Positions 8,161 to 52,060 of a DNA stretch of 64,000 bases are shown here, piece by piece. Each line of letters starts with the position of its first letter. Within the stretch, counting starts at the first letter, position 1. The translations under genes and the position numbers were made by a program. The notes beneath the pieces were generated by a model that worked only from the letters and a program-made list of their open reading frames with translations, ran no database searches and was not told the DNA's origin. The stretch lies in NCBI RefSeq assembly GCF_003334335.1, contig NZ_QOWQ01000012.1; one strand, 5' to 3'. This DNA is from Escherichia coli (GTDB taxonomy: Bacteria; Pseudomonadota; Gammaproteobacteria; Enterobacterales; Enterobacteriaceae).

Positions 8161-8421
8161 ATGAAAAATCTCATTGCTGAGTTGTTATTTAAGCTTGCCC
8201 AAAAAGAAGAAGAGTCGAAAGAACTGTGTGCGCAGGTAGAAGCTTTGGAGATTATCGTCACTGCAATGCTTCGCAATATGGCGCAAAATGACCAACAGCG
8301 GTTGATTGATCAGGTAGAGGGGGCGCTGTACGAGGTAAAGCCCGATGCCAGCATTCCTGACGACGATACGGAGCTGCTGCGCGATTACGTAAAGAAGTTA
8401 TTGAAGCATCCTCGTCAGTAA
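8161..8421 (+). CDS. iraP: anti-adaptor protein IraP (RpoS stabiliser)
   Basis: 86-aa [36 protein letters not shown]...; matches recalled IraP (YaiB). Confidence 0.9.
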
Positions 8422-16918: not shown

Positions 16919-17827
16919 GTGCGTATAGGTATCGATTTAGGCGGCACCAAAACTGAAGTGATTGCACTGGGCGATGCAGGGGAGCAGTTGTACCGCCATC
17001 GTCTGCCCACGCCGCGTGATGATTACCGGCAGACTATTGAAACGATCGCCACGTTGGTTGATATGGCGGAGCAGGCGACGGGGCAGCGCGGAACGGTAGG
17101 TATGGGCATTCCTGGCTCAATTTCGCCTTACACCGGTGTGGTGAAGAATGCCAATTCAACCTGGCTCAACGGTCAGCCATTCGATAAAGACTTAAGCGCG
17201 AGGTTGCAGCGGGAAGTGCGGCTGGCAAATGACGCTAACTGTCTGGCGGTTTCAGAAGCAGTAGATGGCGCGGCAGCGGGAGCGCAGACGGTATTTGCCG
17301 TGATTATCGGCACGGGATGCGGTGCGGGCGTGGCATTCAATGGGCGGGCGCATATCGGCGGCAATGGCACGGCAGGTGAGTGGGGACACAATCCGCTACC
17401 GTGGATGGACGAAGACGAACTGCGTTATCGCGAGGAAGTCCCTTGTTATTGCGGTAAACAAGGTTGTATTGAAACCTTTATTTCGGGCACGGGATTCGCG
17501 ATGGATTATCGTCGTTTGAGCGGACATGCGCTGAAAGGCAGTGAAATTATCCGCCTGGTTGAAGAAAGCGATCCGGTAGCGGAACTGGCATTGCGTCGCT
17601 ACGAGCTGCGGCTGGCAAAATCGCTGGCACATGTCGTGAATATTCTCGATCCGGATGTGATTGTCCTGGGGGGCGGGATGAGCAATGTAGACCGTTTATA
17701 TCAAACGGTTGGGCAGTTGATTAAACAATTTGTCTTCGGCGGCGAATGTGAAACGCCGGTGCGTAAGGCGAAGCACGGTGATTCCAGCGGCGTACGCGGC
17801 GCTGCGTGGTTATGGCCACAAGAGTAA
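16919..17827 (+). CDS. mak: fructokinase / manno(fructo)kinase, ROK family
   Basis: GTG start at 16919 preceded by aaggagag; [16 protein letters not shown]/sugar-kinase N-terminal motif and a CxCGxxGC zinc motif; 302 aa. Confidence 0.92.
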
Positions 17828-17850
17828 AAAACGTAGGCAATTGGCGCATC

Positions 17851-18045
17851 ATGCCTGATGCGACGCTTGCCGCGTCTTATCAGGCCTACAAAAGGTGCCA
17901 GAACCGTAGGCCGGATAAGGCGTTCACGCCGCATCCGGCAATAAGTGCTCCGATGCCTGATGCGACGCTTGCCGCGTCTTATCAGGCCTGCAAAATGTGC
18001 CAGAACCGCGTAGGGCGGATAAGGCGTTCACGCCGCATCCGGCAA
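17851..18045. repeat. BIME: two tandem ~102-bp units, each built from REP palindromes
   Basis: atgcctgatgcgacgcttgccgcgtcttatcaggcct...ggccggataaggcgttcacgccgcatccggcaataagt occurs twice (unit starts about 17851 and 17953) with a few substitutions. Confidence 0.85.
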
Positions 18046-18071
18046 TAAGTAATGAGCACCGAGACTATAAC

Positions 18072-19256
18072 CTACCCCAGTGGTTTCGCCAGCACCGGAG
18101 TATCCGCCGCTTGCTGGCGCTTATAGCGACCATACAGCAGCAACGACGACATCGCAGCAAACGAAAGCAGGGCGGCAGGCAGCGCCACGTAATTATATGC
18201 CAGTCCCAGCGTCAGCATCATACCTCCGCAATATGCGCCGACGGCGCTACCGAGGTTAAACGCTATTTGCCCACCTGCGGCACCTAATAACTCTCCGCCT
18301 TTGGCGTTTTGTAGTAACAATATTTGTAGCGGTGCTGAAAGGGCAAATAATCCCGCGCAACAAATAAAAGCAAAAATAAGCGACGTTGTTTTCATGCCGC
18401 CGCAGAAAAAGAGCATCAGCAGTGCCAGTACAATTATAAAGTCAGTCACTGCTGCAATGCGCAGTGGTGAATAACGTCCTGAAATCCTGCCACTTAGCAT
18501 ATTTCCCAGCACCATCCCTAGCCCAACTAACATCATAATAAAGGTCATCGCCGTTTCCGAAAAACCGGAAATAAACATCATGTATGGCTTTACGTAGCTG
18601 AACCAGGCAAACACACCTGCGTTGCCAAACATCGTGGCGGCGAAAATTAACCACGGGGCCGGGCTGCGCAAAAAGTGAAATTGTTCGCGCAGATTTCCTT
18701 TCGCCTCGTCGCGAATATCTGGCACCCAAAAATAGACCGATGCCATCACCGCAATATTAAAAACAGCGATCAATAAAAAGGTGTAACGCCAGCTAAATTC
18801 CTGACTTAAATACGTTCCCAGCGGAATGCCCAGCAAATTGGCGACTGTCATCCCGGAAACCATCCCCGCCACGGCGGCGGTGACTTTTCCGGGTTTGATA
18901 ATTTTTGATAACACGATCGCTCCGACGCCAAAAAATGCGCCATGCGGAAAGCCGGATACCAGCCGACCAATGGCGAGCATCAGGTAAGACGAAGAGAGCG
19001 TGAACATGGCGTTGCCAATGACGCACAACGCCACCAGAAACAACAAGATATGTTTGAGTGAGTAGCGGCTGGAAAAGAGTGCGATGATTGGCGCACCGAC
19101 CACCACCCCCAGTGCATAATACGAGATCATATGCCCGGCGGCAGGAATCGAAATTCCTACGTTATGCGCCAGCTCCGTGAGCACGCCCATAATGCCAAAT
19201 TCGGCCATCCCCAAACCAAACGTGCCCAGAGCCAAAGATAAAATGACTTTTTTCAT
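18072..19256 (-). CDS. araJ: MFS transporter AraJ
   Basis: Start at ATG 19256 (MKKVILSLALGTFGLGMAEFGIMGVL...), 394 aa, 12-TM MFS pattern; the track ORF extends 28 codons upstream. Confidence 0.92.
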   Translation of the reverse strand: MKKVILSLALGTFGLGMAEFGIMGVLTELAHNVGISIPAAGHMISYYALGVVVGAPIIALFSSRYSLKHILLFLVALCVIGNAMFTLSSSYLMLAIGRLVSGFPHGAFFGVGAIVLSKIIKPGKVTAAVAGMVSGMTVANLLGIPLGTYLSQEFSWRYTFLLIAVFNIAVMASVYFWVPDIRDEAKGNLREQFHFLRSPAPWLIFAATMFGNAGVFAWFSYVKPYMMFISGFSETAMTFIMMLVGLGMVLGNMLSGRISGRYSPLRIAAVTDFIIVLALLMLFFCGGMKTTSLIFAFICCAGLFALSAPLQILLLQNAKGGELLGAAGGQIAFNLGSAVGAYCGGMMLTLGLAYNYVALPAALLSFAAMSSLLLYGRYKRQQAADTPVLAKPLG

Positions 19257-51974: not shown

Positions 51975-52060
51975 GTCAGATGCGGCATGAACGCCTGATT
52001 CGGCCTACAAAGGTTTGTAATTCAGAAACTTTGTAGGCCTGATAAGCGTAGCGCAGCAGG
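51975..52060. repeat. BIME/REP cluster containing a long palindrome
   Basis: cctacaaaggtttgtaattcagaaactttgtagg inverted repeat followed by ttgtaggcctgataagcgtagcgcagcaggc (REP-like). Confidence 0.7.

Follow-up and report, generated by a model that had tools for sequence, protein, structure and literature searches.

A BIME-2 array of variable copy number between mak and araJ of Escherichia coli

The spacer between mak and araJ of Escherichia coli K-12 is filled by a canonical BIME-2 array with the order Z2-S-Y-l-Z2-S-Y, and the number of its units varies between strains. The observations made on it are very probably explained together by a BIME-2 array that expands and contracts by one period, whose hairpins serve at RNA 3' ends and whose sequence offers a weak gyrase site, with neither IHF binding nor ribosome stalling as part of its function. 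The array was analysed in a 64,000-nt stretch of the E. coli contig NZ_QOWQ01000012.1, the whole of which is referred to here as the window, and it was then compared with the corresponding locus of other genomes.

Two families of direct repeats were detected in the spacer, one of 56 nt (17851-17906 and 17953-18008, 96% identical, spacing 102) and the other of 42 nt (17905-17946 and 18009-18050, 98% identical, spacing 104). The two units that they make up follow each other head-to-tail with a period of 102/104 nt and with 6 nt (gctccg) between them. In a global alignment, units 1 and 2 differed by three substitutions and one 2-nt indel, an insertion in unit 2, and their similarity ended abruptly on both sides, the last matching positions being 17946 and 18050. 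The longest exact direct repeat measured 37 nt, as against 11 nt or less in 100 shuffles, and when the dot plot was collapsed to offsets the identity was 0.53 at 102 and 0.47 at 104, with neighbouring offsets at about 0.2. The tandem repeat is real and non-random. Tandem Repeats Finder did not report the array under any of four parameter sets, presumably because the array holds fewer than two full periods, which is a limit of the tool and not counter-evidence. The original prediction, made from the sequence, had described two head-to-tail units of ~102 bp with a few substitutions, located between mak and araJ. The repeat search, the global alignment and the offset identities all bear out the two units, three substitutions and one indel are few indeed, the position matches the MG1655 annotation, and the dot plot that had been proposed as a check displays tandem diagonals at offsets 102 and 104. 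The predicted coordinates, 17851-18045, are good to within 5 nt, since the second copy really reaches 18050.

Table 1. Features of the mak-araJ spacer and its surroundings, in window positions.
Feature	Position	Strand or orientation	Description	Basis
mak (fructokinase) CDS	16919-17827	+	RefSeq MG1655 410144-411052; the window matches MG1655 here	RefSeq; ORF list
Repeat unit 1	17851-17946		96 nt; Z2a, S linker, Ya and first 6 nt of the l linker	
Z2a palindromic unit (REP)	17852-17889		TGCCTGATGCGACGCTTGCCGCGTCTTATCAGGCCTAC, ends CTAC	REP-tail pattern match
Unit 1/unit 2 substitutions	17888, 17894, 17911		A/G, G/T and C/G, respectively	Global alignment
S linker	17890-17905	head-to-head	16 nt, AAAAGGTGCCAGAACC; without IHF consensus	Sequence
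Ya palindromic unit	17906-17940	inverted	GTAGGCCGGATAAGGCGTTCACGCCGCATCCGGCA; hairpin -20.9/-21.3 kcal/mol	Minus-strand pattern match
Y-l-Z2 dyad (Ya-l-Z2b)	17909-17988	+	Full-length match	Rfam RF02564 (naRNA4)
Published gyrase cleavage site	17926		A of the TTCA loop in Ya	W3110 410375
l-type linker	17941-17953	tail-to-tail	13 nt, ATAAGTGCTCCGA; inter-unit junction	Aligns to Rfam naRNA4 linker
Repeat unit 2	17953-18050		98 nt; Z2b, S' linker, Yb and AATAAGT	Repeat search, alignment
Z2b palindromic unit	17954-17991		As Z2a except CTGC for the terminal CTAC; hairpin -21.3/-21.8 kcal/mol	
S' linker	17992-18009		18 nt, AAAATGTGCCAGAACCGC	Sequence, alignment
Yb palindromic unit	18010-18044	inverted	GTAGGGCGG for GTAGGCCGG, one stem pair broken	Pattern match, 1 mismatch
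araJ (MFS transporter) CDS	18072-19256	-	Convergent with mak; RefSeq MG1655 411297-412481	RefSeq; ORF list
Rho-termination region, centre	~18459	+	On the mak strand, antisense to araJ	MG1655 411684, PMC7815308

The REP tail motif CTTATCMGGCCTAC is present four times in the array, in the orientations +, -, + and -, the CTAC...GTAG linkers measuring 16 and 18 nt and the tail-to-tail linker 13 nt. A fold of the whole spacer (256 nt) gave long-range pairings between both Y copies, which are possible and uninformative, and therefore the hairpins were assessed by folding each unit separately. Hairpins of about -21 kcal/mol on either strand were obtained for each unit (for Z2a, -21.3 kcal/mol on the + strand and -21.8 on the - strand, z -6.4/-5.7) but Yb, in which GGCCGG has changed to GGGCGG and the hairpin is weakened to -16.5/-14.5 kcal/mol. 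An inverted-repeat search of the array region reported none, its seed of 9 nt being longer than the REP stems. The REP-tail pattern had 8 matches in the window, with 0.36 expected by chance; other REP tails were located at ~15827 (just 3' of rdgC), at 37758 (isolated) and at 51995-52046 (an inverted pair).

Two kinds of BIME have been distinguished: BIME-1 elements consist of z1 and y with a long L linker, often with an IHF site, in single copy, and BIME-2 elements consist of z2 and y with a short S linker and s, l or r flanks, in tandem copies that are well conserved at one locus, that have linkers differing between loci and that vary in number between strains (Ton-Hoang et al., PMC3333891). 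The mak-araJ array is identified as BIME-2 because its unit types, linkers, orientation and tandem layout fit this definition. Its units are Y and Z2, not Z1, and the Rfam Y-l-Z2 model aligns with them end to end; they alternate in orientation, with S linkers head-to-head and a linker of the s/l/r group tail-to-tail; the tandem copies are conserved (95% identity between the K-12 units) and occur as one, two or three; and the array is placed extragenically at the 3' ends of transcription units, between convergent stop codons. The BIME-1 arrangement, Z1 with Y as a single copy, was not found, the units matching the Z2 of REP325 and two pairs standing in tandem. The BIME of the original prediction is thus confirmed as two tandem z2 + y units with short S linkers.

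In K-12 the mak/araJ spacer is 244 bp long and both genes converge on the repeat array, which is entirely extragenic, lying between their stop codons. From the end of the mak stop codon (17827) it is 25 nt to the first REP stem, while the araJ stop codon (18072-18074, minus strand) is separated from Yb by 27 nt. Over the spacer, the window aligns without a difference to positions 411053-411296 of MG1655, and a megablast search with 17400-18500, which lies over mak and araJ, matched all of the 5426 complete E. coli genomes. Strain LR-29-1 was the sole match at 100% to the 1101-nt query, among the matches listed; the T of the window at 18204, for which MG1655 and most K-12/B strains read C, is a synonymous change in a Gly codon of araJ (GGA vs GGG). 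An ORF of 80 aa (17806-18048, +) spans the array and was judged an artefact of the GC-rich repeats, almost certainly spurious. The locus tags of MG1655 pass from b0394 (mak) to b0396 (araJ), and this jump suggests that a former ORF annotation in the spacer may have been withdrawn.

The number of units was compared across the 5426 genomes, in which one unit, two units (in two forms) and three units were encountered, as expected from the predicted variability between strains. The K-12 type, with two units and a spacer of 244 bp, was recognised by its 47-nt inter-unit junction in 1381 of the genomes. A second two-unit form, the ESC53083 type, is diverged and taken to be older; it has 29 extra nt in the inter-unit linker and a spacer of 268 bp, and was counted by its own junction in 1032/5426. 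Most of the ~3000 genomes with neither junction carry one unit in a spacer of 142 bp (for example O26 11368 and EDL933), a state taken from a sample of them. Among 39 chromosomes sampled evenly, the K-12-type, long-type and single-unit forms stood at 10 : 7 : 22, in agreement with the split given by the junction counts (25%, 19% and 56%). The only three-unit genome of the 5426 was that of strain PigCaeca_1 (NZ_CP039298.1; L024, 273-618), with two K-12 junctions and a spacer of 346 bp, that is, 244 + 102 bp, the extra 102 bp reproducing unit 1 and the l linker exactly. This third unit is a recent one-period expansion, and an array of this form is what slippage or unequal exchange in the 37 nt common to Z2a and Z2b would be expected to yield. 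The comparison thus provides an allele census for one BIME-2 locus over 5426 genomes, including an expansion caught in the act, and the mak-araJ locus could be used as a simple marker, or to measure how fast REP arrays expand and contract.

The hairpins of the array were considered in relation to the ends of the mak and araJ transcripts. No intrinsic-terminator-like or promoter-like site was detected in 17500-18400. A Rho-termination region, sensitive to bicyclomycin, has been reported at MG1655 411684 on the + strand, with a Rho score of 4.5 and p = 1.4e-8 at a low resolution of 800-nt windows (Adams et al., PMC7815308, supplementary file 2). It lies ~400 nt past the array on the mak strand, and therefore mak-side transcription passes through the array before Rho stops it. 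Transcription of the mak strand for ~400 nt into araJ is antisense and could interfere with araJ. Rho-terminated transcripts are known to be trimmed back to stable stem-loops, including REPs (Dar and Sorek, PMC6061677), and the literature on REPs as RNA stabilisers is summarised in PMC12306157. With no intrinsic terminator at hand and with Rho acting farther downstream, protection of 3' ends is the most likely role of the hairpins at this locus, as the properties of the class suggest: the mak and araJ transcripts would end beyond the array by Rho action, 3'-to-5' exonucleases would then trim them back to the array hairpins, and these hairpins would set and stabilise the 3' ends of both mRNAs. 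No RNA 3' end inside the array (MG1655 4110xx-4113xx) is included in the curated 3'-end (Term-seq) lists of PMC7815308.

The central Y-l-Z2 dyad was the sole above-threshold Rfam match in the 64-kb window, scoring 79.8 bits with RF02564 (gathering score 59.5) over model positions 1-77 of 77, and 56.5 bits on the minus strand. Among the controls, the six REP325 copies scored 95-111 bits, and the wcaK-wzxC (67-73 bits), phnE-phnD (69 bits) and E. whittamii mak (76 bits) loci were also above threshold, while the single-unit and long-linker (ESC-type) mak-araJ alleles gave no match. The model passes any BIME-2 Y-l-Z2 dyad, and therefore a match marks the repeat class, not a specific gene; it is to be expected, as a warning, that automated annotation will label many ordinary BIME-2 dyads "naRNA4". 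The arrays in the phnE1-phnD spacer of MG1655 (L022, 3250-3330) and in the wcaK-wzxC spacer of SaT040 (L019, 444-707), both above the RF02564 threshold, are unrelated to the one between mak and araJ.

The same match could be taken to make the central Y-l-Z2 pair a functional naRNA4 paralogue, cut from mak read-through, that binds HU, bridges cruciforms and condenses the nucleoid, in which case the copy-number polymorphism would create or remove a small-RNA gene. The match is full length, well above the gathering score and oriented as mak transcription, the + strand transcription crosses the array, and the alleles with a single unit or a long linker are without it; moreover, ~80% of REPs are transcribed, and two-hairpin RNAs, even antisense ones, condense DNA with HU in vitro (Qian et al., PMC4550694). 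Such a paralogue is nevertheless unlikely, given that generic BIME-2 dyads exceed the threshold and the true REP325 copies score higher, that the 3'-end lists mentioned above are empty for the array, that mak is apparently weakly expressed, and that ~75% of the E. coli genomes are without the K-12 short-linker dyad, the only mak-araJ form in E. coli that reaches the threshold. That the polymorphism switches a naRNA4-like RNA of two hairpins on and off within mak read-through transcripts is likewise improbable. Only the K-12-type two-unit alleles (and the three-unit allele), about one quarter of E. coli, have Y and Z2 placed 13 nt apart; under this reading their RNA could bind HU and aid nucleoid bridging, and single-unit and long-linker alleles would be without the RNA.

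The history of the units was approached through the identities between them, in which gaps were counted. The O26 single unit was 96% identical to K-12 unit 1 and 99% to unit 2, and in O26 11368 it consists of the left part of K-12 unit 1 (CCTAC) and the right part of unit 2 (AAAATG, +CG, GGGCGG). Removal of the 29 nt from the ESC-type junction, ACAA-(29 nt)-GTGCTCCGA, gives the K-12 junction ATAAGTGCTCCGA. Simply fusing the left and right flanks of today does not produce the inter-unit junction. Blastn of the 44-nt junction of Z2 tail, S and Y head found a median of 27 places per genome and is non-discriminating for the locus specificity of the S linker, which was judged instead by identities computed between the units of this locus and those of other BIME-2 loci.

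For the ancestral state, 14 loci of other species were examined. The array of E. whittamii is a degenerate two-unit one, joined by TTGTGCTCAGA and sharing its Z2b variant with the ESC type; a single unit is present in three other Escherichia lineages, and Escherichia albertii NBRC 107761 (L005) has one degenerate Y-like REP after mak, with araJ not adjoining. One-unit and two-unit states are thus both present in other Escherichia species, which fits either order, duplication or deletion. The "tandem duplication" of the original prediction is correct as a description of the structure, but the history goes beyond a single recent event, the same junction being present in the much more diverged two-unit allele and a related one in E. 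whittamii. Comparison of the alleles makes an origin by expansion and contraction likely: the array would gain or lose exactly one ~102-bp period, giving the 1-, 2- and 3-unit alleles, and the likely mechanism would be either unequal homologous exchange or slippage during replication, between the stretches of 35-37 nt in which the units do not differ. In our reading of the sequences, the two-unit layout would be old in the genus, with units lost and occasionally regained by recombination between the repeats, and the K-12 pair would have been re-homogenised or re-amplified relatively recently in comparison with the diverged two-unit allele. TnpA-REP (REP-associated transposase) may have had a role in the amplification.

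Other REP structures were observed at this site in the course of the comparison. The sequence after mak in E. albertii resembles that following mak in some Citrobacter loci (L008, L012), and in Citrobacter koseri NCTC10786 (L018) at least 3.5 tandem units of ~82 bp, made of a different, Citrobacter-type REP pair, lie directly after mak; the site after mak seems prone to acquiring REP arrays, independently from genus to genus. In Escherichia sp. MOD1-EC7003 (L017, about 8290-8340) the motif TGCCTGA is repeated six times in the 5' arm of Z2, a microsatellite nested in a REP.

Local duplication has to be weighed against the alternative that the two units are independent BIME-2 insertions lying side by side. 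Units from unrelated BIME-2 loci are already 86-91% identical to each other, so that the 95% of K-12 unit 1 against unit 2 is a modest excess, and the two units of the ESC53083 type, at 89%, are no more alike than this background; the REP325 units among themselves reach 99-100%. Independent insertions are very unlikely all the same: an S core (GTGCCAGAACC) and a Z2 loop (CTTGCCG) specific to this locus are common to the K-12 units, what the three-unit allele has in addition is a perfect 102-bp copy, the single-unit allele is cleanly chimeric between the K-12 units, and tandem copies at the same locus are generally well conserved whereas linkers vary between loci (PMC3333891).

A role in translation was also considered, in which the hairpins would stall ribosomes at the mak or araJ stop codon, as reported for REPs near stop codons (summarised in PMC12306157). 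Stalling requires that no more than 15 nt separate the REP from the stop codon (PMC12306157), and at 25 nt from mak and 27 nt from araJ the array is too distant to stall terminating ribosomes, which makes this role highly improbable.

Protection of 3' ends apart, the array was compared with published gyrase data. In BIME-2 elements, sites of gyrase cleavage are over-represented, chiefly in the loops of y REPs and independently of transcription (Sutormin et al., PMC6379681), and gyrase binding, as originally predicted, fits the array as a property of this class, with one weak trusted cleavage site at the locus. This site, W3110 410375, is a trusted ciprofloxacin site with an N3E of 6.2, with raw calls in two of the three ciprofloxacin replicates and an adjacent raw call at 410376, in a strain with a Mu SGS cassette between dcuC and crcA (PMC6379681 and its supplementary tables). 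W3110 positions were obtained as window + 392449, an offset set by the mak end at W3110 410276. The dcuC-crcA cassette presumably lies downstream of mak-araJ on the K-12 map, and therefore should not shift the W3110 coordinates of this locus. The signal was absent with oxolinic acid, microcin or rifampicin + ciprofloxacin (PMC6379681 tables), and the sequence of the site at 17926 recurs at a distance of 104 nt and at other places in the genome, so that the placement of reads may be ambiguous. The 13 annotated BIME-2 regions of that study were chosen by at least 3 sites (PMC6379681), a number above the one trusted site found between mak and araJ. The weak signal is consistent with BIME-2 behaviour and is not proof for this locus, where the Y units would offer gyrase a weak site, set by the sequence, in the space on which two transcription units converge.

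The IHF binding of the original prediction did not hold, and that the array is an IHF-binding RIB/RIP (BIME-1) site bending DNA at the ends of transcription units is extremely improbable: IHF binding is documented for L-linker BIMEs (PMC3333891, citing Boccard and Prentki 1993), whereas the linkers here are of 13-18 nt (S of 16-18 nt, l of 13 nt, with no L linker), the units are Z2 and not Z1, and the IHF consensus WATCAANNNNTTR had 0 matches on either strand of 17828-18071 even with up to 2 mismatches, where ~2.2 such matches would be expected at the average rate of the window. The nearest exact match to WATCAANNNNTTR is located inside mak, at 17699. The attribution is thereby corrected, IHF binding belonging to BIME-1 and not to BIME-2.

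Descriptions of REP/BIME arrays, of their gyrase binding, their protection of 3' ends and their variability in copy number go back to the 1980s and 1990s, and the mak-araJ locus is of little significance beyond bookkeeping. With BIME-1 and RIB/RIP elements the array shares an intergenic Y unit paired with an inverted Z-type unit; Z1, the long L linker with an IHF site and the single copy of those elements are without counterpart in it. Palindromic units are also targets of IS1397 and of RAYT (TnpA-REP). No transposase gene adjoins the array in the window, and in E. coli B19429 (NZ_CP142919.1; L002, 940-1960), which has a single-unit mak-araJ BIME, a truncated IS1397, composed of a transposase pseudogene and a helix-turn-helix ORF, is inserted within the Z2 loop (…GCGACGCTTGC, IS, TGACGCGTC…). 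The position of this insertion fits the specificity of IS1397 for palindromic units reported in work cited by PMC3333891. In the case of naRNA4, the HU-binding RNA from REP325, the mak-araJ dyad fits the covariance model end to end, but naRNA4 comes from another locus with a higher score (95-111 bits, against 79.8).

The closest comparison is with REP325, the best-studied BIME-2, located between yjdM and yjdN, whose repeats are Y and Z2 joined by the linker l (PMC4550694). The mak-araJ array uses the same Y and Z2 blocks, its Z2 and Y motifs each being one loop base off those of REP325, and both arrays have alternating orientation, head-to-head S and tail-to-tail l-type linkers, an extragenic position at gene 3' ends, tandem units of ~100 nt and a copy number that varies between strains. 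They differ in the number of units (two between mak and araJ, six in REP325) and in unit-to-unit identity (95% as against 99-100%). Unlike REP325, the mak-araJ array has a locus-specific S linker sequence and two degenerating changes in unit 2 (CTAC to CTGC, and the broken Y stem pair). In all of this the mak-araJ array follows the known rules of its family, and nothing in it departs from BIME-2.
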